From: Squalus acanthias
Lineage: Eukaryota
Length of the DNA: 60,000 bases
Reading direction: 5' to 3'
Assembly (NCBI GenBank): GCA_030390025.1
Contig: CM059432.1
Coordinates: forward strand, 94,366,001 to 94,426,000
In this document: positions 4,675 through 59,640 of the stretch, piece after piece
Layout of the letters: each line of letters begins with the position of its first letter
Position numbering within the stretch: position 1 is the first letter of the stretch
Notes under the pieces: generated by a model
Databases searched by the model: none
What the model saw: only the letters and a program-made list of their open reading frames with translations
What the model was told of the DNA's origin: nothing
Program-made: the position numbers and the translations under genes

Positions 4675-6689
4675 TAAGAACATAAGAAATAGGAGCAGGA
4701 GTAGGCCATTCGGCCCTTCAAGCCTGCTCCGCCATTCAATGAGATCATGGCTGATCTTCTGCCTCAACTCCATTCACCAGCCCTATCACCATATTCCTTG
4801 ATGCCTTTACTAGTCAGAAATCTATTGACTTCTGTTTTGAATATACCCAATGACTGAACCTCCACAGCCCTCTGGGGTAGAGAATTCCAAAGATTCACCA
4901 CCCTCTGTGTGAAGAAATTTCTTCTCATCTCAGTCCTGAATGCCCTACCCTTTATCTTGAGACTGTGGCCCCTGGTTCTAGACTCCCCAGCTAAGGGAAA
5001 CATTCTCCCAGCATCCATCCTATCAAGTCCTGTAATAATTTTGTATGCTTCAATGAGATCCCCTCTCATTCTTCTGAATTCAAGAGAATACAGGCCTAGT
5101 TTACTCAATCTCTTCTCATACGACAGTCCCGCCATCCCAGGAATCAATCTCGTGAACCTTCGTTGCACTCCCTCTATGGCAAGTATATCCTTCCTTAGGT
5201 AAGGAGACCAAAATTGTAAACAATACTCCAGGTGTGGTCTCACCAAGGCCCTATATAATTGGAGTAAGACTTCTTTACTCCTGTACTCAAATCCTCTTGT
5301 AATGAAGGCCAGCATACCATTTGCCTTCCTAATGGCTTGCTGCACCTGCACATTCACTTTCAGTGACTCATGTACAAGGACACCCAGGTCCCTTTGAGCA
5401 TCTGCATTCCCCAATCTTTCACCATTTAGTAAATACTCTGCCTTTCTGTTTTTTCTACCAAAGTGGATAACTTCACATTTATCCACATTATATTCCATCT
5501 GCCATGTTCACGCCCACTCACTGAGCCTGTCGAGATCCCCTTGAAGCCTCTTCACATCCTCTTCGCAACTGACACTGCCACCTAGCTTTGTATCATCAGC
5601 AAATTTGGAAATGTTACATTTAGTCCCCTCATCCAAATCATTGATATAGATTGTGAATAGCTGGGGCCCGAGCACCGATCCTTGCGGTACCCCACTAATC
5701 ACAGCCTGCCATCCTGAAAAAGACCTGTTTATCCCTACTCTTTGTTTTCTGTCTGTTAACCAATTCTCAATCCATGCTAGTATATTACTCCCAATTCTAT
5801 GTGCCCTAATTTTGTTCACCAACCTCTTGTGTGGGACCTTATCGAAGGCCTTCTGAAAATCCAGATTCACCACAACTACCCGTTCCCCTTTGTCTACTCC
5901 ACTAGTTACATCCTCAAAGAACTCCAATAGGTTTGTCAAACAGGATTTCCCTTTCATAAATCCATGTTGCCTCTGCCCAATCTTACTATTAGTTTCTAAG
6001 TGCCCAGTTATTGCATCCTTTATAATAGATTCCAGCATTTTCCCAACTACTGATGTGAGGCTAACAGGTCTGTAGTTCCCTGTTTTCTCTCTCCCTCCTT
6101 TCTTAAATAGCGGGGTTACATTTGCTATCCTCCAATCTACAGGAACCGTTCCAGAATCTATAGAATTTTGGAAGATGACAACCAATGCGTCCACTATTCC
6201 AATGGCCACCTCTTTCAAAACCCTAGGATGTAGGTCATCCAGTCCTTGAGATTTGTCGACTTTTAGTCCCATTAATTTTGCTAGTACTGTTTTTTTACTA
6301 ATAATAATTTCTTTAAGTTCCTCATTCTCGTTATACCCTTGGTTTTCTCGTATTCCTGGAAGGTTTTTTGTGTTTTCCTCCGTGAGGACAGAAACAAAGT
6401 ATTTATTTAATTTCTCTGCCATTTCCTCATTCCCCATTATAAATTCTCCCGTCTCTGACTGTAAAGGACCTACATTTACCTTTGCCAGTCTTTTCCTTTT
6501 CACATACCTATAGAAGCTTTTACAATCCGTTTTTATATTTTTCGCTAGTTTGTGCTCATATTCCATTTCCCCTTTCTTTATCAATTTCTTGTTCCCCCTT
6601 TGCTGATTTCTAAAAAGATCCCAATCCTCAGGCTGACCGCTTTTTCTGGCAACTTTATAAGCTTCCTCCTTTGACTTAATACTAGCTTT
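4675..6689 (-). mobile_element. 5'-truncated CR1 LINE (RT, ORFs 5508-6584 and 4764-5498) nested in A1
   Basis: RT motifs [10 protein letters not shown] and KFADD, one frameshift, TTCTTATGTTCTT tail. Absent at the homologous position of A2 and A3. Confidence 0.95.
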
Positions 6690-6883
6690 AATGATTTGTT
6701 GTGTTTGTTTCTATCAGTTTGACCTGAATAAATGACGCAGTTTGTTGAATAAAAAAGTTGTTATATTCAAAATGTACATGTTTGGCCTTTGCAATCATTG
6801 CAATCTTTGGCCGGCTATAGGGGTTGTGGGTTGCTTTCCATGATGTTGTTCTCCATGCCAGAAGCCATTTCCTCAGTAGGGGC

Positions 6884-12706: not shown

Positions 12707-13913
12707 TTACACGAATCTGGCATGGATGAGTGCATCCCTTGCCTGACGGCCAGCAATGTGGTCGTCTGCTGCTGGATTGGGCACATCCGGCCCCGCAAGG
12801 CGTTGCTCCCCGTCCTCTTCCTCATCCTTTGAGGAGGCTGTGCACTGAGCCACTTGTTCGTCCGGCAGCACTAAGCCACGCTGCTGTGCGATGTTGTGCA
12901 GGGCACAGCAGACCACGACGATTCTGGACATCCTGGCTGGTGCATACTGCAAGGCTCCTCTAGATCTGTCTAGGCATCGGAAGCGCATTTTGAGCAAGCC
13001 GATGGTTTGCTCGATGATGCTTCTGGTGGATATGTGGCTCAAATTGTACCACTCCTCAGCATCGTTTGATGGCCTCCTCATTGGGGTCATAAGGCACTTT
13101 TTCAGAGGATAGCCCTTGTTGCCAAGAAGCCATCCGGAAAGTTGGTTTGGCAGATGGAAGAGCTGAGGCACAGTAGACTGGCGCAGGATGAAGGAGTCAT
13201 GGCAACTGCCAGGGTACTTTGCGCAAACATGCATGATGATCTTCCTGTGGTTACACACCAGCTGGACGTTCAGGGAGTGAATCCCTTGCGGTTGACAAAT
13301 ACAGCTGGGTTGTGATAGGGGACCCTAATGGCTACATGTGTGTAGTCAATGACGCCCTGCACCATTGGCAAGCCTGTCATATTGGCAAAGCCAACTGTGC
13401 GCGCCGTCACACTTGGGCCATCCGTGGAGAAGTGGATGTAATTGTGCGCCTTTGCAAAGAGGGCATCGGTGACCTGCGTGATGCAAGTGTGTGCGGCCGA
13501 CTGGGAGATGCTGCTGATGATCCCTGGAAGGAGCCTGAAGCAAAGAAGTTGAGTGCGGTGGTGACTTTGACAGCAACTGGCAAGGAGTGTCCACCCGCTC
13601 CTCTGGGCTCCAGGTGTTGGTGCAGCATTGCGCAGATGTCAGTGACTACGTCTCTCGAAAGTCACAGCCTCCTTTGGCACTGATGCTCAGTCATGCTGAG
13701 AAAGCTGATCCTCTGCCTGTAAACCCTATGTTGGGGGTATCTCCGGCGGCGAGGTGCAGCCCTGCGCTGAGGCCCACTGCCCTGTGCATCGTCAGGTGGG
13801 TGAGGAGGAGGTTGGCGCTCCTGGTGCTGGTGTTGTGGCTGGTTGTGGTGCTGCTGCGGCTGTTCTTCCTCCGAATCTGACGACGAGGATGAGAGGATAT
13901 AAATATTTCCCAT
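12707..13913 (-). pseudogene. B3 Harbinger transposase, frameshifted
   Basis: [31 protein letters not shown] and [16 protein letters not shown] in different frames; catalytic GDKGY reads GNKGY. Confidence 0.9.
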
Positions 13914-19735: not shown

Positions 19736-20159
19736 TCTTAGGCCAACAAATAAATAAACAAACTACCCAATTGCACCTGGACAAATAAACTCACCTGTGG
19801 CAATGGTTATCAAAAGGTATTTTTCACAAAAGATAGAGGGGAAGAATTTCAGTACAACCCTGTGTGGGGCACTATTATCGGCCGGGCGCAAAGTTTAGCG
19901 CCCGGCGCTAATTATTGCCTCCGACTGCAATCTTGGCCTCTATCGCCCCTGGAGGTGATTTGAGTGCTAAATCAGGCGCTACACACCTGTCTTAAGCCAC
20001 TAATGTCGAGGAGCGAGGCGCTACCTCAGAGCGCCACCGAAGCTCAGGTGATGTCAGTTAGCAATGGAACATGGACAGACTGGCGCCGGCCAGTTCTTAA
20101 AGGGGAGGGGCCATGTTGCTGTCCAGCCACACCCTGCTCATTGCAGCCTTGGTGACGGG

Positions 20160-21906
20160 CACTGCTCTACCCACAGAGTGGCAGGAGGCCATTGCCCCGT
20201 GAATACAGAAGAGTCTGGAGGGAGGTGGCTCAGCACGTCTCCTCGAGGAGCCTGGTGCCGAGGACCCACACCCAATGTCGTAAGAAGTTCAACGACCTCA
20301 CTCGGGTGGTCAGAGTGAGTGGCTGCTTTTCAATACCTCTACATCCCTCCATCTCAACTTCACTCTGTGCCCAGAGGGTTTAAAACCCCCAAATTCCCAA
20401 CACTCATCCAAGACCTATGGCCATCTCATAAAACACACAAGCACATTCCACACCTTGCATACATTAAGGCTATTCAACTATAGGAGGCACATCAGGCAAG
20501 CACATGGCTGCATACATTAAGGGCTATTCAACTATAGGAGGCACATCAGGCAAGCACATGGCTGCACATTCACTCAGATACCGTCCTTTTTCTTGCAGGC
20601 CAAGCTCTCTCATAACAGGCGGCAGCAGCAACGCACAGGAGGAGGATCAGCTGACCTACCGACCTTCACCGATTTGGAGGCGCACGTGCACAGGATCATT
20701 GCCAGCCAGGTCATAGGTGCCGTGGCCGCTGGAGATGTCGACTCCCTTGGGAACAGCAATGCTATGTTCATCAGCTTTCTCTCCTCTCTCATTCCACTTG
20801 TCCCTCACAACACCAGCCTTTTACACTTTCAATCCAACTTACTAAATGTCTCCAGTCCTTGCTCCCTTACTGCCCCCCTGTCCTGACGCTAAAGCCACTC
20901 TTCTACCGCCCTGCTTTCAGATAGTGAACCACCAGCTGAGCAGCCTGCTCCTCAACCTACCAGCGGGAGCGATGGCCCAGGCGAGGAGGAAGAGGAAGCC
21001 GGAGCCTCAGCGCCAGCGTCTCCCGAGGGAGCCAATGCCCACACTGGGACCACGCCTTCCCTGGAAGGGAGCAGGGGGGAAGGGTCTGACGAGGACGAAG
21101 CTCCGGGACCCAGCAGGCTGCAGCAACGCCATGGGGGTAGGGAAGCTCGGGGACCATCTCCCCGGAGGGAAAGTAGGCAAGTGAGTCCTGCTGCACAGGA
21201 CTCAGATGAGGACTGCGTCATCGCGGCCATGAATAGCTAGGCCTTGAGCATGCACACTGAGCTCATGGGTGCAATGGCAAGGGTGCCCGAAAGCATGGAT
21301 GGACAGGCTAAGAGTGTGGAGCAGTCCGCTGCAGCACAGGCCGACGCAACGCAATGGCTTAGTGCTGCAATTCAGTCATTGGCTGGTGCCACCCACTCTC
21401 AGACTGCTCTCATGCAGTCTCAGATTGATGTCACGCAAGCACTGACTGCTGCCATCCTCGCTGGGTCGGCCACATTGCCTCAGGGCTCTCATGGCGCCGC
21501 AACAGGTCAGCAATCTGTGCTCGAGCAGATTGCTCCGGATGCTGAGGTACTGCCCCGTGGGAGTGCCAGTGTGTCGGTTGAGCAGGAAGGTGCTGTCCTC
21601 TCTCAGGATGACAGCATTCCTGCTCCCACCACTGGCACTTCCCCATTGCACTTGCCACGGCCTGCAACACAGCCAGCCCAGACTGCTGCCGCCCATGCAG
21701 AGTTGGTGCAGTCTGCAGCTGGGGCCTCCAGGCCCAGAGCTGGTTGAGGGCGTCCTTCAAGGGCATCTGTAGTCTCTGGATCTGACATTCAGCAGCCTTC
21801 CACCAGCCTTGCTGCAGCCACTGGGGCCCCATTACGGAGGAGCAGTAGGGTGGGAAGGGGGGAAGTGCGCAGGGGATGGAGATCACCCTCGAAGGGCAAA
21901 CAGTAG
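20160..21906 (+). pseudogene. A2 Myb/SANT gene remnant
   Basis: Start of exon 1 deleted, exon 2 donor mutated (GT>CT near 20762), stops in exon 3. Confidence 0.85.
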
Positions 21907-22191
21907 GAGGTGTAAATAAATGGTGGGAATGTTTGTGGTAAAGGTCGAGGTTCGTGTGAATACATTTGTTTACTGTTTTGCCGTTTATCTCCGTCTTGTG
22001 AGAACTCGTTCTGTTAGTTCATGATATGTTGTGTTTGTTTCTAATTGTTTGTCCTGAATAAATGACACACACAGGTTATTAAAGAAAAAAGCTTTTGTAT
22101 TCAAAATTGACATTTTTACCCTTTGCAATCATTCCAGGTTTGACCGGCAATAGGGGGTGTGGGTTGCTTTCCATGATGTTGTTCTCCATGT

Positions 22192-23325
22192 CTAGAAGTG
22201 GCTTCTTATCAGCCGTTCACGGACGGCCCTTGCACTGGCAACATTGTGTGCCTCCCTCCCACATTGGTGCTGCTGATCCTCCTCTTCCTCCTCAGGTGGT
22301 GCACCAATCCCTGATGGCATTGGCTGGGTCCTCAGGATTGCCAGGTTGTGAAGCATGCAGCACACAACTATGAACAGGGAGACTCGCTCAGAAGATTACT
22401 GCAGGGCTCCTCCTGAGTGGTCCAGACAGCGGAACCGTTACTTCAGCATGTCGATCGTCTGCTCAATGATGGTCCTGGTGGCGAGATGGCTCTCATTATA
22501 CCACAGCTCGGCAGGGGTGTTGGGGTTACAGAGTGGTGTCATCAGCCAGGTGCAGAGTGGATAACCCTTGTCCCCGAGGAGCCATCCACTTGGGTGATGC
22601 GGTGCCTGGAAAAGGTCTGGCTCACCAGTCTGGCGCAGGATAAAAGCATCGTGGCTGCTGCCAGGATAGCGGGCATTGACGGCGAGTATGAGCTGTCTGT
22701 GGTCACAGACCAACTGCACATTTAAGGAGTGGTAGCCCTTGCGGTTTTGGAATACCTCTGCATTTTCATGCGGTGCCCGCAATGCCACATGCGTGCAGTC
22801 AATGGCGCCCTGCACCATGGGGAAGCCCGCTATCCTAGCAAAGTCACATGCGTGTTCATGCTGTTTGGTCCGGGTCATAGGGAAAGAGATGTACTGGCGT
22901 TTCCTTTTATAGAGGGCATTTGTCACCTCCCGGATACAACAATGGACAGCGAACTGGGAGATATTGGTGATGTCCCCAGTAGCAGCTTGAAAGGAGCCGG
23001 TGACATAAAAATTCAGAGCCACTGTCACCTTCACTGCCACTGACAGAGACGTCCTGGTCCTCAGTTGAGGCTACAGATCTGGTTGCAGCAGTTGGCAGAG
23101 CTCAGTGACCACCTCCTTGCTGAAGCGCAGCCTGCGCAAACACTGCTCCTTAGACAAATGAAGGTATGAGAACTGTTCCCGGAATACCCTGGGAGGGTAA
23201 GGTCTCCTGTGCAGAGGCCTGTTGGCCCTCCTCCCTCTGGCCATGTTTGCCACTCTCTCTCTGCGTCTCTGCTGCCTCCGATTCTGCAGGTGCAGGACGA
23301 CGCCCCGATTCAGTGCAGCCCCCAC
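22192..23325 (-). pseudogene. A2 Harbinger transposase, frameshifted
   Basis: ORFs 23071-23325 and 22438-23040 (AIDCTH, LGDKGY, IIEQTI). Confidence 0.92.
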
Positions 23326-24479
23326 AGTCTCTTCTAAATCGCTGCAATGAAGGTCAAATCAAAATGAACCTACAAAATGCTGCTCAGGACCCAAAACTCC
23401 TTCACACTGCGTTGAATCTCTCCAGACGTCTCTCCCTCTCAGAATGCGTGGTGCAAAAATGTCTCCGACAAAAAAAGGCAGGAAGCAGCCGCCTTTAAAT
23501 AGCGCTCCCCCAGCCCCTTCCCGACTGCAAAATGTTCCCCTCTACTTGTTGTTGCTAGCGGCAGGTGGAAAGGCAGGGGGTGCGACTCAATTTCCGGTCC
23601 TGGGCACTACTGGGGCGTTGCATGCTCGACTGACGTCACGATCTGTGGGCGCAGGAGATCGTGGCGGTAGTGTTTAACGCCGCTGCAAAATGACTGGTCA
23701 ATTTCGCGAGCGGCGCTAACATCGCCGCGCTCAGGCGCTACCTTCCTAGCGCCCTGTTAGCGCCCCCTGGAGGCTCTAACGGAAGGCGCTAAGCAACCAA
23801 ATTTTTCCCCCAGACTTTTTCTGTGGAGAACATTAACTGAAAGAAGGACCAGCAAATATCATGTAACTTTCTGATAAATGTGTTTACCTCCATATAAAAT
23901 AATTGTTCAGAATGTTGTAGTAAAGGGAGAATATTTTGAAGATTACTGTGGAAAATCTACTTTAGCTTTTATGTTCATGGAAGATCTCGCAGAAAGAGTA
24001 CTATAATATTCATCATGTACTAAATCCTGATTAATGATGTACAAGTATAACAGAGTGTTGTTACAAGGCTGTAGCACCAGAGGCGTGGAGATGTCATAAA
24101 CCCAGTGAGTAAAGATTTCTATTTTTTGTTTTTGCTTTTGCTCGTGGGGTTGTCATGGTAGACAGTGACTGTCATCTTCTACTTATGTACCACGTAATTA
24201 GGCTAGAAGTTGCAGTGGGATTTATTTTACTGGATAATACAAAGAGCAAAATCTTCTTATTGGCCCTACACAAATGGTAACAAACAAGGTGAGGAAATAT
24301 CTGACAGTAATCTGATTCAGGGTTCTGATCGTGTTACAACTACCATATCAACTCAATTGCCATTTGACATGAATAGGTTAATACCTCCATTACTATACTG
24401 GACAGAGAAATTTCTTACAAACACATTGGCACAGAACTTGCTGAACAAATAACAGCATGTGAATGACTCACGCAGTTAA

Positions 24480-30801: not shown

Positions 30802-32146
30802 GCAGCACCCCTCCTGTTTTTTACTTTTCCACAAATTCCAACAAACAATTGTGTGTACATGATAGCATGCTCCTGCTCTCAATACAAAGCCACAGCTGAG
30901 TGCTAGGAATGGAAGCGTTCAGCTCTTAAAATCCCCCGGCAAATTCAATGCTCGGAAATAATGTCTGATTTGCTAAATGAGAAAGAAACATGAAGGGAAC
31001 AGCAAAACCAGCACCTACAGTAGGAATGTACCTGGTGACGCCACTGCTCCTGACTCCTGCAGTCGACTATCAATATTTTATGTTGCTCTGTCTCCTTTCA
31101 TAAATTATACAAGAAAAATACTCTTTAATATTCCTCTTTATCTTTCGAATATCTTTCCTTTAATGAATACAAATCATATGTTTGTTCTTCTAAAATGTAT
31201 TCATGATAATGCTTGATATCTTTTTTCAGTATTTGCAAGTCATCAAATTACTCGCTCCTCCCCATCTTAAAGCAGCCCATCTCCAGCTGACTGCACCAAT
31301 ATTGGAGAACAGTACCTGGGATACACCTGCCCATCTTTCCAAATGCACAATAACATCTCATCAACCCCATTCACTAAGATCCACATCTAACAGCTATCTG
31401 AAGTAAACGGGATTCACTGCCACCAAATGCAACGCACCAGCACAATAAATTACTGTTCTATTTGTATACAAAGTAGTGCAAAATAAGGATACTTTGGTTA
31501 CTATAAAACAAGTCTGTGAATTTGCATATTTTTAATGATTTAATGACTGTTGATATTTTTCCTGTGATTAATCCATAAGCTTTGCAAAACAATTACCATG
31601 ACATCATTATGGCTCGAGCCTTCTTAATTAGTTTCAATAGAAGAGGGATATTGATTTGCTCTGGATGTCTTACTTTAAATGTACTCTACGTAGAAGAAGA
31701 ATTGTCAGATAAAAATAATTTGCAATTTTTTAAATGAGAGTTCAAAAATATATTCATAATAATGGTGAGTGGAATGTCAAACTAAATGAACAGATACAGC
31801 AGTGCATTCCCTAAAGAACATTTCTATCGTCACTGTCCTCTGCACTAACATAAGTTTGAACTTGAGTTGGATCTGCCCTCACCAAGGTCTTGCTGAAGGC
31901 TATCACAAGCACTTGGGTATTTTCTTGTCCTCTGCCAATAATATTTTATAACAATGAAAGCTAAAATAACTTTGTCCTCTCTCATTATAATAATTTATAC
32001 AATTAATAACATTTTGTAAGTCCAACATTTTACTAGGATACATTATAAGCTGTATATTTTTGTTTCCCTTTATCATTTAAAAAAAATTCTATCCACTCTT
32101 ACCCAGTGAATACATTGGCCGGAATTTTCCCTAGCTGGGCGGGCCA

Positions 32147-32323
32147 TAAGAACATAAGAAATAAGAGCAGGAGTCGGTCATACGGCCCCTCGAGCCTGCT
32201 CCGCCATTCAATAAGATCATGGCTGATCATCGACCTCAACTCCACTTTCCTGCCCGATCTCCATATCCCTTGATTCCCCTAGAGTCCAAAAATCTATCTA
32301 TCTCAGCCTTGAATATACTCAAA
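32147..32323 (-). mobile_element. CR1-a 3' end (continues at 36604-37134 and 43628-43795)
   Basis: TAAGAACATAAGAA tail and 3' UTR; rejoins across B1 as ATACTCAAAGACTCAGC. Confidence 0.9.
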
Positions 32324-32596
32324 GGGGGCGATTTTCCCATTGGAGGCGGGTTTCAGTTTAGGGTGGGTTCCAAACCCGCCTCCACTGTCAGGTGGGAAAA
32401 ATTTGCGATTTTCCCCTAATTAGCCAGTTACTTTCAGAGGTGTGGGTTCCCCTGGGCCAATTAGTCTTTTGGGACTGAAACTCGCCCCTGCTGACGTCAC
32501 TTATCCAGCTTCATTTAGGGCTGTTTGCTGCCTTGGCTCATTCCACTGGTTTTTGGTCGATGGTGCACCACCTCCAAACTTTTATCTCATTGAAGA

Positions 32597-34605
32597 ATGG
32601 CCAGCTCCAAGGCGAGGGCCTCCCCGAGGTTCTCGGATGAGGCACTGGGTATCCTGGTTGAGGGGGCGAGAGCTTTCAGGGAGGTGCTCTTCCCCTCATC
32701 TGGGAGGAAGAGGCCTCCCAAAGAAACCAAGGCTGTGTGGGTCTAGCTGGCAAGGGATATAACCTCCAGATCAGTGTGTAGCAGGACATGGCTGCAGTGC
32801 CGTAAAAGGTTCAATGACCTTGTAAGATCAGGCAAAGTGAGTATACCTTCAGCTTGACCCTCCTTCTGCTCCCCTTCTCCTCTCATCACCAGCACACTGC
32901 AATGTCAACTTCCTCCTCCACATCCCACTTTACCCTTACAACCCTTGCACCTTTCACCATCCCTCTCACACTATGAACCCAATCACTTCACTATTCTACT
33001 ATGCTGCCCTCACACTCCCTTTCAATGTTGTGCAATGACAATGACTAACTATACTCAGGGAGGGCCCTTGGACATGGAACTTCACTCCATCTTTGTCTCC
33101 TTCTAAGCATCTATGCTCTGGACTCTCTACACTCACTCCATCATTCTCACTGCAACTCCACTTGTCTCCCTCACTGCAGGAAAAGAGAGCCCACAATAGA
33201 AGGAAAGGGCGAAGACAGGAGGAGGGCCACCTTCCCTCGCCCTTTTCACCCAGGCTGAAGAGGCGGCCATGGACATCGCCGGCGCAGAGGTGGAGGTGGA
33301 AGTGGGGGACGGACAGACGGGCGATGCAGACCAAGCTGGTGAAAGAATAGTTTTGCGTCTCTCATTTACACTGCTTGAGTGACTGAAATGGCTGCTGGTG
33401 TACATTATTAGAATGCCACTTGAGCATCTGCACTACTGCATGTGCATGCCACACTTCTGTCAAATGCCTAACCCATGCCTTTACTCCCCCACAGGACCAT
33501 CCACAGAGCCCCCCCGCCCCACCCCACTGTCGACGAGGAAGAGGCTGAGCAGCAAGACTCCTCAGGGAACCTGCAACCTCTGAGGACGCAGCGTCAGCAG
33601 ATGTAAGCGCACCCAGCACCAGCTGCAGATACACACACCTCGGTGGGACCTTCGGTTGTCGCCGTGTGTATCACATCTCACAGGTGAGCATCAGCAGGTG
33701 GTGGAGACAGGGACAGAAGTGGAGAGTCCTCGTCGGAGGTCGCAGGACTCTCCTAGCTTTGCTCCATTGCATGTGGACCCTGTGCCTCTGGGTCCATCCA
33801 GAAGGAGAGCGGTGCTGGATCTCCAGGAGCAGGTGCAGGACTCTCTGACTGGTTTTGACTCCAGGGTCACTGCGAGTGTGGGGAGGATGGAGGAGTCCAA
33901 CTCTAACATGAGCAGTGCCTTTGTGGAGGCAATGGCGTATCAACGCACCACCACGGAAAGGATGGCAATCTCCATGGAAAGGATGGCTACCTCTGTGGTA
34001 CGATGGCTACCTCTCTGGAAAGGGTGTCTACCTCTCTGGAAAGGGTGGCTAAGGTAGAGGAGAGGATGGCTACGGCCATGGAGGACCTAAGTCGCCAGAG
34101 TCTGGAAAACATGGTGAATGTTCAGAATAGACTGACATCTCTGGAGGAGCGATGCGCAGCTATTGAGCAGAGAAACCAGAGCTTTATGGAAGTCCTTTTG
34201 AGTAGGACTGCCAGTGCAGATACGGGTCCCTATGGCCCCCGTGATGTGCAGCAAGGAGCTCTCAAGCCACTTGCAAACGCTGAGGTGGACCTGGCCCATG
34301 AGAGGGAAGTTGGTGGCAGAGAACAAGGAAGTGGGGGCTCCTCTCCAAGCACTCATACTTCCATGCCACTGCGTAGCCCTTGGTCAGAGCCCCACCAGAG
34401 TCCGCACCCAACTGAGATGGGCGTCTCAGCCCCTGCACTGCCGCAGGATGAGCAGACGTTTGGCGAGCGCTCACAGGCTCAGAAACCCAGAGGACGCCCG
34501 CCAAAGGTGTCGAAGCAGGAGCAGCATGAAAGTGAGCAAGGGGCCTCCACTTCTGCTGAAGCCACAGAGGAGCACCACGTAGGAGCACGCGTACAAGAAA
34601 AATAA
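32597..34605 (+). pseudogene. B1 Myb/SANT + coiled-coil + AT-hook gene (exons about 32597-32836, 33180-33338, 33495-34605)
   Basis: MASSKARASPRFSDEAL...RTWLQCRKRFNDL with an in-frame TAG; later frameshifts; KPRGRPPK near the C-terminus. Confidence 0.82.
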
Positions 34606-34873
34606 AGCACCATTCGTCACAGGGATAGGCACTTGGGTGACTGTTTCTGTTTATTGATGAAATGCCATTCCTGTTTGAATGTATTAAAATGAGGTGATGG
34701 CAAACTGTTGGCGTGATGGCATCTGTTATTTCGGCTTAGGCAGCTCCACATTGCGGGCTCCGCGACACTTGCGTGGTCAGGTTGGTGGTCAGAGTGAAAG
34801 GAGGCCAGAGAGTCATGTCCATTGTCTATCATGTGTTAAGAAGGAGCCAAGCACATGTGCTAACATGGGCAAC

Positions 34874-36087
34874 CTATGCAAATCTGGCCAGGATGAGTAC
34901 ATCCCTTGCATCATGGGCAGCCATGTGCTCGCGTGCTGCCGCTGCTGCTGGTAGATACGCCACTGCTCAGTCCTCCTCCTCCTCCTCCTCATCTGAGGAG
35001 GCTATGAACTGAGCCACTTGCTCATCAGGAAGCTGCAAGCCACAACGCTGTGCCATGTTGTGCAGTGCACAGCAGACCACGACCATTCTGGAGGCCCTGG
35101 CTGCTGAATACTCCATCTGATCTGACAAGGCATCGGAATCGCATCTTCAGCAAGCCAATGGTTTGCTCGATGATGGACCTGGTCGAAATGCGGCTGGCGT
35201 TGTAGCGCTCCTCAGCCTCGTTAGCTGACCTGCTGATCGGCATCATTAGCCACTTCTTCAGGGGGTAGCCCTCGTCACCAAGGAGCCATCCGTTAAGTTG
35301 GTTTGGCGGATTGAAGAGTGGAGGAACACTAGAGTTCCGCAGGATGAACGAATCATGGCAACTACCACAGAACTTGGCACAAACATGCAAAATCTCCTTC
35401 TTGTGGTTACACACCAGCTGTACGTTGAGGGAGTGGAAGCCCTTGCAGTTGACAAAGATAGCTGGGTTGTGATGGGGTGCCCTAAGGGCCACATGTGTGC
35501 AGTCTATGACGCCCTGCACCATTGGCAAGCCTGCCATATTTGCAAAGCCAACTGAACGCGCGGTTAAACTTGCTTGATCCCTTGAGAAGTGGATGTAATG
35601 GTGCGCCTTTGCGAAAAGGGCATCGGTAACCTGCGTGATGCAACTGTGGGCGGCCGACTGGGAGATTCCGCAGATGTCTGCTGATGATCCCTGGAAGGAG
35701 CCTGAGGTAAAAAAGTTGAGTGCGGTGGTGACTTTGACAGCCACTGGTAAGGGGTGTCCACCCGCTCCTCTGGGCTCCAGGTGTTGGTGCAGCAGTCCGC
35801 AGATGTCTCCGACAACCTCTCGCGAAAGTCTCAGCCTCCTTTGGCACTGCTGCTCACTCATGTTGAGGTAGCTCATCCTCTGTCTATAAACCCTGAGAGG
35901 GGGGGTATCTCCTGCGGCGACGTGCTTCCATGCGCTGGTGCCTTCTGCCCTGTGCAGCATCAGGTGGGTGAGCAGGAGGTTGGCGCTCCTGCTGCTGTTG
36001 CTGCTGAGCTGCCTGGTTCTGCTGCTGCCGTGGCTGCTCCTCATCCGAATCTGAGGTCCATGATGAAAGGAAATAAATGGTTCCCAT
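34874..36087 (-). pseudogene. B1 Harbinger transposase (frameshifts near both ends)
   Basis: Core [27 protein letters not shown] and [13 protein letters not shown] lies in ORF 35025-36119; the true N-terminus MGTIYF is in another frame. Confidence 0.92.
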
Positions 36088-36603
36088 GCTGCTGGCAGAT
36101 AGCTCCATTGGGGAAGCACTCAGTCCAAGCGGGGAGAGGGTCTTCCAAGGAGGTCCCACAGTTGAGAGATAGAAGCTGCAGCACCTCCGACTTCGGTAGG
36201 CCTGCTAAAAGTGCTGAAAGACCTTTGGAACAAATGTTCTGCCACCTGCAACTGCTCCCTGATGAAAGCTCCGTTTTAATGGTGGAGCTGCAGCTGTGAG
36301 GAGGCCACCCACTTGTCAACCTGTCAGGATCAGCTGGCGTGGTTTAGGAGGGTCGTGCAACACGCACAAAATGTGGCAAAATAACAAAGGCCTTTCATAA
36401 TAGGATTATAGAGGCCCTTAACGACTATTTAAGTGTCTTAACTACCTCTCCCGACTGATGGAGGCGGGACCGAATCGCACCCATCAAACCTGCCTCCGGC
36501 AAAATTGCGCGGAGGCGGGTTCCGAACCCGCGCTCACTTTTTGTGATTTTCCCAACTATCCCGCCTCCAAACCCGCCTCTTCGGGGCTGGGGAAATCGCG
36601 CCC

Positions 36604-37134
36604 AAAGACTCAGCATGTACAGCCCTCTGGGGCAGAGAATTCCAAAGATTCACAACCCTCTGGGGGAAGAAATTCCTCCTCATCTCAGTCTTAAATGGCC
36701 TACCCCTTATCCTGAGACTATGCCCCCTAGTTCTAGACATTCCAGCCAGGGGAAACAACCTCTCAGCATCTACCCTGTAAGTCCCCTTCAGAATCTTGTA
36801 TGTTTCAATGAGATCACCTCTCATTCTTCTAAACTCCAGAGAGTATAGGCCCATTCTACACAATCACTCATCATAGAACAGTCCTCTCATCCCAGGAATC
36901 AATCTAGTGAACCTTCGTTGCACCGTCTCCAAGGCAACTATATCCTTCCTTAGATAACGAGACCAAAACTGTGCACAATACTCCAGGTGTGGTCTCACCA
37001 AGGCCCTGTACAATTGTAGCAAGACATCCTTACTCTTATACTCCAACCCCCTTGCAATAAAGGCCAACATGCCTTCCTTATTGCTTGCTGTATCTGCATG
37101 CTAGCTTTCTGTGTTTCTTGCACGAGGACACCTA
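36604..37134 (-). mobile_element. CR1-a middle part
   Basis: LVRPHLEYCAQFW and RNFFPQRVVNLWNSLP. Confidence 0.93.
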
Positions 37135-37491
37135 GGGGTAGAAATTAGGTCGCGCCCCATTTGGGGCGCAAATATCGTCCGCGCGCAAATATTAGCGCCT
37201 GGCGCTAATTATCGGCACTGACAGGAAACTTCACTTTTACCGCCCCGGGAGGTGAGTGGAGCGCTAAATTAGGCGCTGCACACCTCTCTTAAGGCGCAAA
37301 GGCCTAGGAGTGAGGCGCTAACTCAGCGCACGAGCGCAGCGCAGCTGCTGCCAGTTAGCGCGGGAACACAGACACACTGACGCCGGACACTTCTTAAAGC
37401 GGGGGGGGCCACTTGCTCCCCAGCCACACCCTGCTCATTGCAGCCTTGAATCTCAGCCTGGAGAGACCTGTAATCCATTTTGCTGCCAAGA

Positions 37492-39563
37492 ATGGAGAGG
37501 GTGAGAGAACGCGCTCATCGCTTCACCGAGCGGGCCTTGGATGCTCTGGTTGACGCAGTGGAGCGCAGACGATGCATGCTGTTCCCAGAGAGTGGCAGGA
37601 GGCCTTTGCCACGCGAGTTCAGAAGAGTGTGGAGGGAGGTGGCTCAGAGCGTCTCCTCCAGGAGCATGGTGCCCAGGACCCATGTCCAGTGCCGCAAGAA
37701 GTTCAACGACCTCACTCGGGTCGTCAGGGTGAGTGGCTTTTTCTCAATACCTCTCCATCCCTCCATCTCAACCTCACTCTATGGCCAGAGGGTCTTAAAA
37801 CCCCAATGCACAACACTCATCCAACACCTATGGCCCTTTCATCAAACACACACACACATTCCACACTTTGCATACAGTAAGGGCTATTCACCTATGGGAG
37901 GCACATCAGGCAAGACCATGGCTGCATATTGTAAGGGCTATTCACCTATGGGAGGCACATCAGGCAAGACCATGGCTGCATATTGTAAGGGCTATTCACC
38001 TATGGGAGGCACATCAGGCAAGACCATGGCTGCATATTGTAAGGGCTATTCACCTATGGGAGGCACATCAGGCAAGACCATGGCTGCATATTGTAAGGGC
38101 TATTCACCTATGGGAGGCACATCAGGCAAGACCATGGCTGTATATTGACTCAGATGCTGTCCTTTTTCTTGCAGGCTAAGCTGGCTCATAATCGGAGACA
38201 GCAGCAACGGACGGGTGGAGGGCGGCTTCAGCTGCAACCCCTCAGCGATCTGGAGGAGCGCGTCCACAGGATTGTGGCAAGCCGGGTGATCGGTCCCGTC
38301 GCCACTGGAGACGCCGACCCCGTTGTGGACAGCAATGGTAAGGTCATCACCTTTTTGTCCTCTGTCCTTCCACTTGTCCCTCACAATACCAGCCTTTGAC
38401 ACTTTCAATCCAACTTGCTAACTCGCTGCACTTATTCCTCCCTTACTGCCACCCTGTCCTCACGCTAAAGCCACTCTTGTACCTCCCTGCTTTCAGATGG
38501 TGATTCACCAGCTGAGGAGATGGTCCCTGAAGCTGCCACTGGGAGTGATGCTGCAGCTGAGGAGGAAGAGGAAGCCGGAGCATCAGTGCCACCCTCTCCC
38601 GAGGAAGCCCATGGCCACACTGGGAACACGCCTTCCCCGGAGGGGAGCAGGGGGGAAGGGGCTGATGATGGTGAAGTTCCAGGACCCAGCGGGCTGCAGC
38701 AACGCCATGGGGGGGGGAGGGAAGAACGGGGGAGCAGGGGGGAAGGGGCTGATGATGGTGAAGTTCCAGGACCCAGCGGGCTGCAGCAACGCCATGGGGG
38801 GGGGAGGGAAGAACGGGAGCCTTCTCCCCAGAGGGAGAGTATGCCAGACACTCCTAATGCAATGGACGCAGAGGAGGAGCGGATGATTGCAGAAATGAAC
38901 AGCCAGGCGGTGGTCATGCACACTGAGCTCATGGGTGCAGTGGGAAGGGTGCCCGAATGCATTGAGGCACTGGCAAGGAGTGTGGAGCACTTCGCTGTAG
39001 CACAGGCGGATGCCACACTAAAGCTTACTGCTGCAATTCAGTCACTGGCTGCCAGGAACCCATCTGAGCCTGCTCTCATGCAGACTCAGATTGAGGCCAC
39101 GCGAGCACTGACTGCTGCCATCCTCGATGGTTCGTGCACATGTCCCCGGGGCTGTCACCGCGCCGCAGCAGGCCAGCAATCTGTTCTCAGGCAAATTGCT
39201 CCGGATGCTGAAGTGCTGCCCCGTGGGAGTGCCAGTGTGTCGGGCGAGCAGGGAGTTGCTGTCCTCTCTCACGATGACAGCATTCCTGCTGCCAACACTG
39301 TCACTTCTCCACTACACTTGCCACCGCCTGTAGGACAGACTGCTGCCGCCCATGCAGAGTTGGTGCAGTCTGCAGCCGGGCCCTCCAGGCCCAGAAGTGG
39401 TCGAGGCCGGCCTTCAGGGGCATCTGCAGTGTCAGGGTCTGACAAGCAGCAGCCTTCCACCAGCCTTGCTGCAGCCACTGAGGTCCCATTACGGAGGAGC
39501 AGTAGGGTTAGAAGGGGGGAAGTGCGCAAGGGAAGGAGATCACCCTCGAAGGGCAAAAAGTAG
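37492..39563 (+). CDS. Harbinger Myb/SANT-trihelix DNA-binding protein, 488 aa; exons 37492-37728, 38175-38337, 38497-39563
   Basis: GT-AG introns (phase 0, phase 1) join 237+163+1067 nt into an uninterrupted 1467-nt frame; Myb motif VWREVAQSVSSR...QCRKKFNDL. Confidence 0.85.
37878..38147 (+). repeat. 54-bp minisatellite x5 in intron 1
   Basis: Unit TAAGGGCTATTCACCTATGGGAGGCACATCAGGCAAGACCATGGCTGCATATTG; about 2 units in A1 and A2. Confidence 0.95.
38643..38817 (+). repeat. 87-bp in-frame tandem duplication in exon 3
   Basis: GSRGEGADDGEVPGPSGLQQRHGGGREER occurs twice. Confidence 0.95.
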
Positions 39564-39857
39564 GATGTGTGCCAAAATGCTGGTCATTTTTTTATTAAAG
39601 GCCGAGGTTCATGGCCCAACTTTTGTTTAGTGTTTTGGACATTATCTCCAGGTTGTGAGAACCAGTTATGTTATTGACTGTTTTTTGGTGTTTATTTCTA
39701 TGAGTTTCTCATGAGGAATTGACACACACAGAGTTTGTACAATAAATAAGTTTCTGTATTCAAAATATACATGGCTGGTGGTTGGAATTATTGGTGCCTT
39801 GGCCGGCTTAGGGGTTGCGTGCTGGGTTGATTCGTGTTTGTAGCACTGGCAGGGGTC

Positions 39858-41018
39858 CTAGAAGCGGCTTGCTATTAGTCGTTGACGGACGGCCCTTGCA
39901 GTTTGACCATTGTGGGCCGCCCTCCTGCCTTGGTGCTGCTGCTGATCATCGTCCTCGGCCTGTTCCTCCTCTTCCTCCTCCTCCTCTTGTGGTGCTGCAA
40001 GGCCTGGTGGCATTGGCTGCGTCCTGAGGATTGCCATGTTGTGCAACATGCAGCACACCACTACGAATTTGGAAACTTGCTCAGGCGAGTACTGCAGGGC
40101 TCCTCCGGAATGGTCCAGACAGCGGAATCGTTGTTTGAGCACGCCGATTGTGCGCTCAATAATGTTCCTCGTTGCTTGTTGGCTTTCCTGGTACCGCAGC
40201 TCAGCAGGGGTGTTTGGCGCACGGAGCGGTGTCATCAGCCAGGTGCTCAATGCGTACCCCTTGTCCCCCAGAAGCCAACCAACTGGCTGATGCGGTGCCT
40301 CGAAAATTTCTGCCACAGTACTCTGGCGCAGGATGAAAGCATCGTGGCAGCTGCCCGGATAGTGGGCATTGACAGCGAGAATCACCTGTCTGTGGTCACA
40401 GACCAACTGCACATTCAAGGAATGGAACCCCTTTCTGTTCCGGAACTCCTCTGCATTCTCTCGCGGAGCACGCAAAGCCACATGCGTGCAGTCAATGGCG
40501 CCCTGCACCATGGGGAAGCCCGCTACCCTCGCAAAGCCCATAGCACGGTCATGCTGCTTGTCTGGGGTCATAGGGAAGGAGATGAAGTCTCGTCTCCTTG
40601 TGAAGAGGGCATTGGTGACCTGCCGAATGCAGCGATGCACCGCAAACTGGGAGATATTGGCGAGGTCCCCAACAGCAGCTTGGAATGAGCCAGTGGCGTA
40701 GAAGTTCAAGGCCACTGTGACCTTCACTGCCACCGACAGAGACGTCCTGGACCTCAGCTGAGGCTGCAGATCTGGCTGCAGCAGGTGGCAGAGCTCAGTG
40801 ACCACCTCCTTGCTGAATCGCAGCCTTCGCAAACACAGCTCCTCGGACATGTGGATGTAGGAGAGCTGTTCACGATATACCCTGGGAGGGTAAGCTCTCC
40901 TGTACATGCGCCTGATGGGCCTCCTCCGTCTGGCCATCATTGCCATTCTCTGTCTGCGTCTCACTCTGCTCCGATTGAGCTGGAGCAGGACGACGCCCCC
41001 AATCATTGCAGCCCCCAT
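39858..41018 (-). CDS. Harbinger transposase (HARBI1-like DDE), 386 aa, intact
   Basis: Single ORF with an HTH-like region and the D-D-E motifs AIDCTH, LGDKGY and IIERTIG. Confidence 0.93.
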   Translation of the reverse strand: MGAAMIGGVVLLQLNRSRVRRRQRMAMMARRRRPIRRMYRRAYPPRVYREQLSYIHMSEELCLRRLRFSKEVVTELCHLLQPDLQPQLRSRTSLSVAVKVTVALNFYATGSFQAAVGDLANISQFAVHRCIRQVTNALFTRRRDFISFPMTPDKQHDRAMGFARVAGFPMVQGAIDCTHVALRAPRENAEEFRNRKGFHSLNVQLVCDHRQVILAVNAHYPGSCHDAFILRQSTVAEIFEAPHQPVGWLLGDKGYALSTWLMTPLRAPNTPAELRYQESQQATRNIIERTIGVLKQRFRCLDHSGGALQYSPEQVSKFVVVCCMLHNMAILRTQPMPPGLAAPQEEEEEEEEQAEDDDQQQHQGRRAAHNGQTARAVRQRLIASRF

Positions 41019-41531
41019 CTTCTCTTTGCCAGAAAAGTAATGAGGTACAGCAACGAAAGTAGCAGCAAAGTTAGGATGAACTAGGCAAAACTACCTCACA
41101 AAGCGTTGAGTCAATGTAGAAGTCTCTCTCTCTCTCTCTCCGAATCTCTCTCTCTCTCTCAGAACGAGTGGTGCATAAATGTCGACCACAGAAAAAGACA
41201 GGAAGAGGCCCCCTTTAAATAGCGCCCCCCCCAGCCCCAGACCGATTGATAACGTTCCAGTCTTCCGGTCGTTGGAAGCGCCAGGCGGTAAGGCAGGGGG
41301 CGCCACTCAATTTCCGCTCCGGGGCGCCCCAAGGGCGTTGCACCACAGAATGACGTCACAATCTGCGCGCGCAGGTGGTCGCAGCGGTAAGTTTTAGCGC
41401 CGCCGCACAATCTCAAGTTAAGTTCTCGAGCGGCGCAAACAGCGCTGCGCCCAGGCGTTAGCGCCTTAACGCCCCATTAGCGCCCATTTAAGGCGCTAAC
41501 GGGAGGCGCAACCAACTGAATTTTTACCCCC

Positions 41532-43627
41532 TAGAATCATAGAATCATAGAAGATAGGAGCAGGAGTAGGCCACTTGGCCCCTCTAGCCTGCTCCGCCAT
41601 TCAATGCGATCATGGCTGATCATCCAAATTCAGTACCCTGTCCCTGCTTTCTCCCCATATCCCTTGATCCCTTTAGCCTTAAGAAATATATCCAACTCCT
41701 TCTTGAATCTATTTAATGAATTGGCCTCTACTGCCTTCTGTGGCAGAGAATTCCACAGGTTCACCACTCTCTGGGTGAAGAAATTCCTCCTCATTTCTGT
41801 CCTAAATGGCTTACCCCTTATCCTTAGACTGTGACCCCTGGTTCTGGACTCCCCGACCATCGGGAACATCCTTCCTGCATCTAGTTTGTCCTGTCCTGTC
41901 AGAATTTTATAAGTTTCAATGAGATCCCCTCTCATTCTTCTAAACTCCAGCGAGTATAAGCCCAATCGACCCAATCTCTCCTCATACGTCATTCCTGCCA
42001 TCCCAGGTATCAGCCTTGTGAATCTTCGCTGAACTCCTTCCATGGCAAGAACATCCTTCCTCAGATAAGGAGACCAAAACTGCACACAATACTCAAGGTG
42101 TGGTCTCACCAAGGCCCTGTACAACTGCAGCAAGACATCGTTGTTCCTGTACTCAAACCCTCTCGCTATGAAGGCCAACATACCATTTGCCTTCTTAACC
42201 GCCTGCTGCACCTGCATGCTTACCTTCAGCGACTGGTGCACAAGGACACCCAGGTCTCATTGTACTTCCCCTTCTCCCAATCTATTGCCATTCAGATAAT
42301 AGTCTGCCTTTCTGTTTTTGACACCAAAGTGGATAACCTCACATTTATCCACATTATATTGCATCTGCCACGCTTCTGCCCAATCACCCAACCTGTCCAA
42401 ATCATACTGGAGTTTCTCGGCATCCTCCTCGCAACACACACGCCCACCCAGTTTTGTGTCGTCTGCAAACTTGGAGATATTACATCTAGTTCCCTTGTCT
42501 AGATCATTAATATATATTGTGAATAGCTGGGGTCCAAGGACCGATCCCTGCGGTACCCCACTAGTCACTGCCTGCCACTCGGAAAAAGACCCGTTTATTC
42601 CAACTCTTTGCTTTCTGTCTGCCAACCAGTTCTCTATCCAAGTCAATACCTTGCCCCCAATCCCATGTGCCTTAACTTTACACGCTAATCTCTTATGCGG
42701 GACCTTATGAAAAGCCTTTTGGAAGTCCAAATACACCACATCCACTGGTTCTCCCTTATCTATTTTACCAGTTACTGTACATCCTCAAAAAATTCCAGTA
42801 GATTAGTCAAGCATGATTTACCTTTTGTAAATCCATGTTGACTTTGTCCGATCCTGTCACTGTTTTCCAAGTGCTCAGCTATTACATCTTTTATAATGGA
42901 CTCTAGCATTTTCCCCACTACTGATGTCAGGCTTATCGGTCTGTAATTCCCTGTTTTCTCTCTACCACCCTTTTTGAATAGTGGGGTAACATTAACTACC
43001 CTTCAATCCATGGGTACTGTTCCAGATTCCATCGAATGTTGGAAGATGATCAGCAATGCATCTACTATTTCTAGGGCCACTTCCTTAAGTACCCTAGGAT
43101 GTAGATTATCAGGCCCTGGGGATTTATCGGCCTTCAATCCTTTCAATTTCCCTAACACCATTTCCCTACAAATACTGATTTCTTTCAGTTCCTCCCTTTC
43201 ATTAGACCCTATGTTCCCCAACATCTCTGGGAGGTTATTTGTGTCCTCCTTTGTGAAGACAGAACCAAAATATGTATTTAATTGGTCTGACATTTCTTTG
43301 TTCCCCATTATAAGTTCCCCTGATTCTGACTGCAAGGGACCTATGCTTGATTTCACTAATCTTTTTCTCTTCACATATCGATAAAAGCTTTTACAGTCAG
43401 TTTTTATGTTCCCTGCAAGCTTACTCTCGTATTCTATTTTCCCCTTCTTAATTAATCCCTTTGTCCTCCTTTGTTGAATCTTAAACTGCTCCCAATCCTC
43501 AGGGTTACTGCTTTTTCTGGCCAATTTATATGCCCTCTCCTTGGATCTTATGCTATCCCTAATTTCCCTTGTTAGCCATGGTTGAGTCACCCTTTTTGTT
43601 TTATTCTTATGCCAAACTGGGATGAAC
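41532..43627 (-). mobile_element. CR1-b, 5'-truncated, nested in CR1-a
   Basis: (ATTCTATG)n tail; ORF2 pieces 41630-42241, 42257-42745 and 43003 onward, with [10 protein letters not shown] and KFADD. Confidence 0.95.
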
Positions 43628-43795
43628 AAATCTCTCTGAACACCAACATTTGAAAGTTTCTCACCATTTAAAAAATATTCTGCTTTTCTATTCTTCCTAC
43701 CTAAGTGAATAACCTCACATTTCCCTACATTATACTCCATCTGCCGCCTTACTGCCCACTCACTTAGTCTATCTATATCCCTTTGCAGACTCTTT
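43628..43795 (-). mobile_element. CR1-a 5'-most surviving part
   Basis: LQRDIDRLSEWA...KCEVIH...QRDL; rejoins 37134 as GACACCTAAATCTCTCTG. Confidence 0.88.
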
Positions 43796-58900: not shown

Positions 58901-59640
58901 GTATTTATATGTATACATGCTATCTATTCCCCTCATATCCTGGGAAAGCTAACGATGTGATTAAATTGAAAGTTCTCTCATTTTGTTGTAGGGAGGGGGG
59001 GGGGGCATCCTGAAATTTATAAACTGGGCAGCCTTGTTAAACAAGGCTTCCTTGTTAAACAAGGCATCAGGTACCCAATGCAGCAATGCACCACAAACAG
59101 ACTAATATTTAAGTGCTGTCCTGTGGTGTAGGAGGGTTGGCTGAGACACAGCTCATTCAGAGCTTCTTTGGTGAAGTGTAGTCTCTTCATGCGTATCTCC
59201 TGACTGGCATCTTGGAAAGAGTGCTGGAGTCTGTAAAGTTGGGTATTGGTTAGTAGGTCTTATCATCCTCCTATGATGTATTCTCAGGCATGCTTCCTTC
59301 TATTTTTCATCTTTCTGCTCTTGTTCTTCCTCCAGTGAAATTGGAAACAGAGGGATCTCCATTAGGAAACCCATGTTGAAGTTTGCATGAGGAGAATTAA
59401 TTTTCAAAAATAGTCCCAGAGGCTATATTTACACAGGTTGAAGTGAAGGGATAATTACTAGTCCTAGCCCCTTTAGGGCTACCCCAGATCAGGCGTATTC
59501 CCCAGACGTTCACTTTCAACTAAAGTTTGAGGTAGCCGAATCCTAAAGACGCTTAATTGGGTCTAAAGGTCTGGACTATCTCTCCCTAAAGGAAAGGAAC
59601 AACCTGAAGATGTTACCGTCCTCCAGATAGCACTTTTAAT

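Follow-up and report, generated by a model that had tools for sequence, protein, structure and literature searches.

Harbinger transposons require two proteins, a DDE transposase along with a Myb-like protein that binds both the element ends and the transposase (PMC2836001, PMC9392472, PMC9710019). Harbinger3_DR of zebrafish, one of the systems compared here, was reconstructed from a consensus (Sinzelle et al. 2008, as described in PMC3016246, PMC2836001, PMC9392472, and PMC9710019). The PHIS families NuwaI and NuwaII of fish, turtle, and amphibian include potentially active fish families with both ORFs intact, and the hosts listed in the available part of that work include no cartilaginous fish (PMC4482050). 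Harbinger-Snek is present in a sea krait as 269 copies with both ORFs intact and with RNA across both genes; the available part of the report describes no cell assay (PMC8437027). Ongoing accumulation of Harbinger elements has also been reported for the coelacanth (as cited in PMC5381603). The intact-ORF copies of sea kraits (PMC8437027) and of the fish, turtle, and amphibian Nuwa families (PMC4482050) do not bear out the initial annotation of the DNA studied here, which implied that a naturally intact vertebrate copy is rare. A literature search that left most subscription journals outside its reach found no natively competent vertebrate Harbinger tested in cells. No Harbinger was found in the elephant shark, and other cartilaginous fish need examination (PMC9179366); a shark assembly paper names Harbinger as a repeat class only (PMC12498223), and the word "harbinger" occurs 0 times in PMC4255032.

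We analyzed a window of 60,000 nucleotides from Squalus acanthias, in which the 4396 bp at 37135..41530 likely represent a full-length DNA transposon of autonomous type, belonging to PIF/Harbinger (PHIS) and residing in an elasmobranch genome. It appears to have inserted where two older LINE fragments meet, too briefly ago in mutational terms (probably less than about 1% neutral change) to have lost its frames. The PHIS hallmarks present are a DDE transposase with its triad, a separate Myb/SANT gene, short TIRs starting with G, and a 3-bp TSD. The initial annotation had called this an apparently intact two-component Harbinger with TIRs, a CTA TSD, an uninterrupted 386-amino-acid DDE transposase, and a convergent three-exon Myb/SANT gene, and this description is upheld: both frames are open and the anatomy is complete. 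For comparison, we used two related elements of the window, A1 and A2, and four sequencing runs out of 20 containing related sequence (X1, X6, X17, and X19). None of the runs listed is recorded as RNA, and for organisms C-F the relation is given by word shares of 0.46-0.52. The features are as follows.

37132..37134: left TSD, 3 bp, CTA; the interrupted LINE picks up again at 43628.
37135..37146, + strand: left TIR, 12 bp, reads GGGGTAGAAATT; 11/12 versus the right end; X6 contigs leave the element before 37135.
37147..37400: left subterminal region, CpG-rich (observed/expected [o/e] 1.09), with five copies of GCGCTAA on either strand (shuffle mean 0.19, 0/500 shuffles as high; the motif, the most frequent 7-mer, was picked post hoc), candidate binding sites for the Myb protein.
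37492..37728, + strand: exon 1 of the Myb-like gene, with the Myb/SANT (trihelix) domain; Pfam Myb_DNA-bind_5, PF13873, E 1.3e-9; dN/dS 0.35 versus A1 and 0.15 versus A2.
37869..38147: 54-bp tandem repeat, 5.2 copies, in intron 1.
38175..38337, + strand: Myb-like gene exon 2; dN/dS 0.28 versus A1 and 0.24 versus A2; contigs of X17 and X19 use its splice donor.
38497..39563, + strand: Myb-like gene exon 3, with an acidic linker, a low-complexity tail, and a basic C terminus (candidate nuclear signal); frame open, without a Pfam match.
39564..39857: 3' region common to both convergent genes; AATAAA at 39741 on the + strand and at 39591 and 39691 on the - strand.
39858..41018, - strand: Harbinger DDE transposase, 386 amino acids, single exon, D176/D252/E288, unusual Q277; no internal stop; Pfam DDE_Tnp_4, PF13359, E 5e-38.
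41230..41518: right subterminal region, CpG-rich (o/e 1.22), with four copies of GCGCTAA on either strand (shuffle mean 0.10, 0/500).
41519..41530, - strand: right TIR, 12 bp, read inward from 41530 as GGGGTAAAAATT; 11/12 versus the left end; X6 loose end behind 41532.
41531..41533: right TSD, CTA, the same triplet as on the left side.

Contigs of X6 switch to foreign flanks exactly before 37135 (at least two contigs) and after 41532 (at least one contig; one right flank reads CT and then T), which confirms the termini. In addition, the LINE of the left flank (36608-37134) is interrupted by the insertion and continues at 43628, past a second LINE, so that the definition of the ends does not depend on pattern matching alone. 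The TSD is preceded by ACAC and followed by GAAT, similar to the Harbinger3_DR target consensus quoted in PMC3016246; the extended target matches that consensus at 8/15 positions, a score reached by 4.2% of the 15-mers in the window and based on few sites. Related elements in the window have the TSDs AGA/AGA and AAA/AAA.

The X6 pieces tile 3847 of the 4396 bases (88%) at 99.4% identity; the 3960 letters aligned include 23 that differ and 5 gaps. None of the transposase differences among those listed alters an amino acid. X6 consists of 184 contigs with 0.14 million letters, and its depth is zero in the two outer LINE bins, in which X1 reaches its greatest depth. Because of the small number of contigs and the lack of depth in those bins, we abandoned the idea that X6 is a genome skim from which the family consensus can be read; it rather resembles a set of clone size with one or few copies. 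Together with family-level splicing of intron 2, this 99.4% relative at another site supports the view that the copy at 37135..41530 is young in sequence terms.

The joined exons of the Myb-like gene encode 488 amino acids with a terminal stop only, and both introns are GT-AG. The splice sites are conserved in A1 (4/4) and A2 (3/4). Exon 3 is weakly constrained (dN/dS 0.51-0.94) and contains an exact in-frame 87-bp duplication at 38642-38815, which A1 and A2 lack. When the exon-1 protein was compared with longer proteins, there was a single, weak match among 158 candidates (Narcine, 50%). A1 and A2 had been regarded as broken sister copies of the element. Broken they are, with one stop, three frameshifting gaps in the transposase, and an inserted LINE in A1 and three transposase stops in A2; however, their identity of about 78% to the copy at 37135..41530, compared with 93% to each other, makes them members of a related subfamily rather than sisters.

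The dN/dS of the transposase core, 0.22 versus A1 and likewise versus A2, indicates that this protein has been under purifying selection in the past. Its predicted structure (pLDDT 88.6) gives the triad the expected placement (strand, strand-helix, helix), which is also that of the Nuwa groups (PMC4482050). Searches for solved relatives gave a low-complexity match only in the PDB by sequence and, by fold, none at E up to 0.001, with weak DDE matches only (best E 0.004). The protein matches 56 of 57 columns conserved among the 137 triad-keeping homologs (of 251), the sole mismatch being Gln277 in place of Asn near the catalytic Glu. This mismatch raises the question of whether the copy, with its open frames, could nevertheless be dead, belonging to a sub-lineage with a disabling missense change (Q277/Q280) or disabled by the 29-amino-acid Myb-like duplication, and spreading only in trans through the proteins of other copies. 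Position 277 is Asn in 127/136 triad-keeping homologs and Gln in just 2/136, both Q277 and Q280 lie in the model on helix 271-297 together with E288, and A1 and A2, which carry no duplication, have Asn and His at these positions. However, Asn to Gln is conservative, requires two base changes, and is shared by the X6 copy, which shows 0 differences across 40001-40515, arguing that it is no fresh private lesion. Moreover, Gln280 occurs in 13/136 homologs, and the duplication is in frame within a low-complexity linker. We therefore regard a dead copy of this kind as distinctly unlikely.

The best-matching named proteins all come from sharks or rays; the first of their "putative nuclease HARBI1" proteins, Pristiophorus japonicus P0001, is 65% identical across 90% of the query. 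In a tree, the transposase clusters with shark and ray proteins (100/99). The HARBI1 proteins share its Pfam family and are mostly fragments or decayed: the triad is kept in 53/120, of which 23 span nearly the whole core. Since several elasmobranch relatives look domesticated, and both frames at 37135..41530 are open with dN/dS well below 1, the locus could be thought of as a gene pair held open by host selection, as for HARBI1/NAIF1. Such genes are single copy, lack TIRs and TSDs, and keep a conserved position, whereas the locus retains TIRs, TSD, and subterminal repeats, lies within LINE debris, has a near-identical copy with other flanks, and keeps the triad that the domesticated-looking groups do not, so domestication is highly improbable.

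Concerning expression, the initial annotation had predicted two splice junctions. The joint 38337/38497 of intron 2 (38336-38496, GT..AG) is found in both RNA-like runs, X17 and X19, and in neither of the other two, X1 and X6 (the RNA-like label is an automated guess), while 37728/38175 is not found among the 16 joints listed of 80, so that intron 1 rests on conserved splice sites; record 10 of X17 continues unspliced from exon 1 into intron 1. The RNA-like contigs listed differ by about 1-9% from the copy at 37135..41530, and among those of X17 and X19 there is no transcript assignable to this locus, the transcripts seen coming mostly from its relatives. The family is abundant in the genome. 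The summed depth of X1 inside the element, about 0.17-1.3 million per bin, is not taken as a copy number, and the 57,373 contigs placed include LINE flanks. The letters of our copy at 40068, 40321, and 40919, which change amino acids of the transposase, are nearly missing from the depth of X1, X17, and X19, so that it represents a minor sub-lineage in these runs.

These data bear on whether the copy or its immediate sub-lineage is currently active, with expression in the germ line and transposition that continues within the population. All needed parts are intact, the 99.4% relative sits at another site, intron 2 of the family is spliced in two runs, and subterminal CpG is undecayed compared with the neighboring LINEs (o/e 0.16-0.32). 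Nevertheless, the subterminal CpG of the broken A1 and A2 is fairly high as well (0.65-1.06), the transcripts derive mostly from other copies, and an identical copy at another site was not found among the matches listed. In addition, when the rate of the epaulette shark is applied, the distance of 0.38-0.58% to the X6 pieces corresponds to 2.7-4.2 million generations, or 1.3-21 million across the confidence interval of that rate. Current activity thus appears unlikely. In a neutral-decay simulation with assumed CpG and indel rates, both frames, the splice sites, and the triad stayed intact in 49% of the runs at 0.25% divergence, 27% at 0.5%, 6% at 1%, and 0.4% at 2%. We consider it most probable that the copy is competent, or almost competent, in structure and is either silent or active on rare occasions.

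Harbinger3_DR of zebrafish and Ping/Pong of rice suggest, by analogy, a mechanism in which the Myb/SANT product of the spliced gene would bind the repeated subterminal motifs as well as the transposase, which it would take into the nucleus, and the DDE transposase would cut at the TIRs and insert with a 3-nucleotide stagger at a loosely palindromic target. From these systems, we infer DNA binding, protein interaction, nuclear import, and catalysis for the two proteins encoded at 37135..41530. It is conceivable, though not likely, that the unmodified proteins mobilize the element ends in vertebrate cells, which would make this a natively competent vertebrate Harbinger and an active cartilaginous-fish DNA transposon whose TSD is relaxed although its extended target is palindromic. 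The copy would be a sensible choice for an assay in cells. Should it prove functional there, the toolbox would gain a native two-component transposase whose targeting is biased by sequence, structural work would gain a substrate, and two-component transposition and target choice could be dissected without consensus reconstruction. For now, it is a further intact element of a Harbinger type for which snake and fish examples have been published. Being fully resolved and coding-intact, it helps to fill the cartilaginous-fish gap noted in PMC9179366.

Compared by description, Harbinger3_DR and the element at 37135..41530 both combine a DDE transposase with a Myb-like gene, a repeated subterminal motif, and a 3-bp TSD, and the left target flank of both reads ACAC followed by C and T (15-bp consensus quoted in PMC3016246); Harbinger3_DR, however, is a consensus with the TSD CWG, whereas the shark element is a natural open copy with CTA. 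It agrees with NuwaI in ORFs, TIRs, and size (two ORFs for DDE and Myb/SANT proteins, TIRs of 12-61 bp starting with GGG, about 4.5 kb; Han et al. 2015, PMC4482050), with a length of 4396 bp versus a NuwaI mean of about 4462. Among the target sites given there, its CTA is one base off the NuwaI TSD CWG and differs both from the NuwaII target C/TNA/G (slashes delimiting the triplet) and from the TWA of PIF/Harbinger in the narrow sense (PMC4482050). Harbinger-Snek resembles it, again by description, in being a vertebrate Harbinger whose two ORFs are naturally intact and whose family is high in copy number, but was acquired by recent horizontal transfer (PMC8437027), whereas the clustering of the lineage described here with shark and ray proteins fits a long residence.

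The element at 37135 to 41530 combines two convergent genes, one for a DDE transposase and one for a Myb-like protein, and shares the window with several other Harbingers (A1, A2, C and D).

Harbinger features of the window (window positions)
37135-41530: the element, 4396 bp
37492-37728, 38175-38337, 38497-39563, plus strand: exons of the Myb gene
41018-39858, minus strand: transposase frame, single exon, 386 aa
from 2401: A1, split by a LINE at 4675-6690
19838-23811: A2
32324-36603: Harbinger C, transposase 55% to that of the element
12713-13727: transposase of Harbinger D
12305, 26134, 43976: additional Myb exons
near 59000: faint transposase remnant

The transposase matches Pfam DDE_Tnp_4 (E = 5e-38), with D176, D252 and E288 as catalytic residues. 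The Myb gene has GT-AG boundaries at both introns and splices into a 488-aa frame with 0 internal stops; its exon 1 matches Myb_DNA-bind_5 (E = 1.3e-9), and exons 2 and 3 gave no Pfam match. The genes are separated by a 294-bp gap with AATAAA on either strand, and intron 1 contains a 54-bp tandem repeat (37869 to 38147, 5.2 copies) that has fewer copies in A1 and A2. These open frames of 386 and 488 aa confirm the intact two-component layout reported in the initial annotation, whose interpretation of it as a naturally competent vertebrate copy is partly supported.

The proposed ends of the element are likewise borne out. The termini are 12-bp inverted repeats with 11 of 12 positions identical, and CTA flanks both sides as a target site duplication (TSD). 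Contigs of the sequencing data set X6 pass from the element into other flanks on both sides (two of them ahead of 37135, one beyond 41532), which confirms the termini and shows that at least one further insertion exists. The motif GCGCTAA occurs five times in the left subterminal region, four times in the right and 0 times in the interior; these counts, left or right, were reached in 0 of 500 shuffles, an after-the-fact test given that the motif was chosen as the commonest 7-mer. It is likewise enriched in A1 and A2. TIR-like ends resembling those of this family also lie at 15834 (+) and 55169 (−), and are perhaps the termini of other Harbingers or MITEs.

Conserved residues of the transposase are almost entirely retained. 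The catalytic triad is kept in 137 of 251 homologs, and the element matches 56 of the 57 columns that are at least 80% conserved among these; against the first 120 homologs, it has 2 mismatches in 94 conserved columns, compared with a median rate of 12.8%. The sole deviation from the 57 columns is Q277 (Asn in 127 and Gln in 2 of 136 homologs). In the column of Q280, 98 of the triad-keeping homologs have His and 13 have Gln, and a predicted model (pLDDT 88.6) places both residues on helix 271-297 together with E288. Since the change from Asn to Gln takes two bases and is common to X6, Q277 is a lineage trait, not fresh decay, and may or may not be harmless. A protein search gave 358 matches, the best from sharks and rays (top 65%, Pristiophorus; top bony fish 45%), and a 39-row tree, made from three elements of the window and 36 of the 120 matches listed (picked for a spread of species), places the element inside an all-chondrichthyan group (support 100/99). 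The host is accordingly taken to be an elasmobranch. Proteins annotated as "putative nuclease HARBI1" form short-branch groups across distant sharks and rays with 100% support (P0008/P0015/P0017/P0020/P0024/P0027; P0019/P0023/P0063; P0039/P0040; P0009/P0012; P0004/P0005). Most members are without the catalytic Glu and some also without Asp residues, and the groups look like elasmobranch-specific domesticated Harbinger transposases.

Sequence of the element is present in 20 of 24 listed runs (10 studies, 6 organism labels, word shares 0.37-0.89), four of which (X1, X6, X17 and X19) are covered by our contig comparisons. A near-identical copy is represented in X6, whose 184 contigs tile 3847 of the 4396 bases: over the 3960 aligned letters of the eight listed pieces there are 23 mismatches and 5 gaps (99.4% identity), and the five inner pieces have 13 differences in 3434. 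Within the transposase, X6 has 0 differences at 40001-40515 and 39858-39928 and one listed difference elsewhere, which is silent, in a list that leaves out 39929-40000 and up to three differences of one piece; of those listed for the Myb gene, two alter residues (M263L and G447R). In a neutral-decay simulation (1000 runs, with an assumed CpG weight of 6 and 0.08 indels per substitution), everything remained intact in 49% of runs at 0.25% divergence, 27% at 0.5%, 6% at 1% and 0.4% at 2%, suggesting that the element has probably drifted by less than ∼1% since insertion. Such drift is not recent in sharks. At the shark rate of 7e-10 per site per generation given in PMC10587355, the 0.38-0.58% between the element and the X6 copy corresponds to 2.7-4.2 million generations, or 1.3-21 million across the confidence interval of the rate. 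This figure uses another species' rate, ignores CpG acceleration and gives the time since the two copies diverged from each other rather than the age of the insertion.

Contigs of the deep run X1, LINE flanks included, number 10,258 at ≥99% identity, 19,266 at 95-99% and 27,849 at 90-95%, which is compatible with an abundant family of mixed ages. The letters of the element at 40068, 40321 and 40919, which affect K317, S233 and P34 in tolerant columns, are common to X6 but nearly missing from X1, X17 and X19, so that in these three the element is a member of a minor sub-lineage. In X1, position 37269 is connected with 41193 and with 41509 by single DNA contigs, and X6 depth is greater at both ends of the element than in its interior, which hints at internally deleted, non-autonomous derivatives.

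Of the two RNA junctions proposed for checking, 38337/38497 was found: the intron 2 joint (38336-38496, GT..AG) appears in X17 (depth 488, short side 19 letters) and X19 (depth 622, 25 letters), data sets that are RNA by guess only, and is absent from X1 and X6. The Myb gene model is thereby supported at family level. Assignment of the transcripts to the element's own locus is opposed by the ∼1-9% divergence of the pieces listed for X17 and X19, by the guessed RNA label of both runs and by intron 1: its junction, 37728/38175, was not among the 16 of 80 joints listed, and one X17 contig runs unspliced from exon 1 into the intron. The model of intron 1 rests on splice sites kept in A1 and A2.

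A1 and A2 are indeed broken, as initially annotated, but are not sister copies: they are only ∼78% identical to the element, their transposases share 93% with each other, and on this basis they form a related subfamily. A2 is without ∼120 bp (at 19838-20160) including the Myb start codon, and its second donor is changed from GT to CT. The dN/dS values of the element versus A1 and A2 (transposase core, 0.22; Myb exons 1-2, 0.15-0.35; exon 3, 0.51-0.94) indicate past selection on the coding anatomy. LINEs and Harbingers lie nested in the window, where TSDs differ (CTA, AGA and AAA). A single LINE fragment at 32143-43795 is interrupted by three insertions: Harbinger C (with an AAA duplication), the element, and a second LINE at the point where the element sits. 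The left-hand LINE (36608-37134) continues at 43628, beyond the second LINE, which begins directly after the right CTA and carries two stops and a frame change. With the second LINE in place, the CTA duplication is flanked by ACAC before and GAAT after, and the target matches the consensus of the zebrafish Harbinger3_DR at 8 of 15 positions, versus 7 of 15 without it, weakly suggesting that the Harbinger inserted last.

In zebrafish and rice, the Myb-like protein has two binding partners, a subterminal motif and the transposase, the latter of which it carries into the nucleus, and both proteins are needed (PMC2836001, PMC9392472 and PMC9710019, in their available portions). By analogy, the Myb-like protein of the element would bind the GCGCTAA repeats as candidate sites, associate with the transposase and take it to the nucleus, with its basic C-terminal tail as a putative nuclear signal, and both proteins would be required. 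We consider it rather unlikely that the native pair is functional in cells, and more doubtful still that the element is active in its host at present.

The element shows the features that were tested for broad-sense PIF/Harbinger. It resembles the NuwaI group in TIR and size, but its CTA TSD fits none of the narrow subgroup definitions in the available part of PMC4482050. Intact natural two-ORF Harbingers of vertebrates are already known: Laticauda colubrina has 269 fully intact copies and L. laticaudata one expressed intact copy (PMC8437027), and 11 NuwaI and 22 NuwaII families with two intact ORFs are potentially active, the hosts of these groups including fish, a turtle and an amphibian (PMC4482050). 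Harbingers are expressed in teleosts and a newt, and their accumulation is ongoing in the coelacanth (as cited in PMC5381603). Our literature search, which had most subscription journals outside its reach, did not turn up any cell assay of a native Harbinger from a vertebrate and found those of sharks solely as a repeat class, as in the accessible text of PMC12498223. The novelty is small: an element that is resolved and intact, and comes from the cartilaginous fishes, a group whose Harbingers are named as a gap in the available part of PMC9179366.
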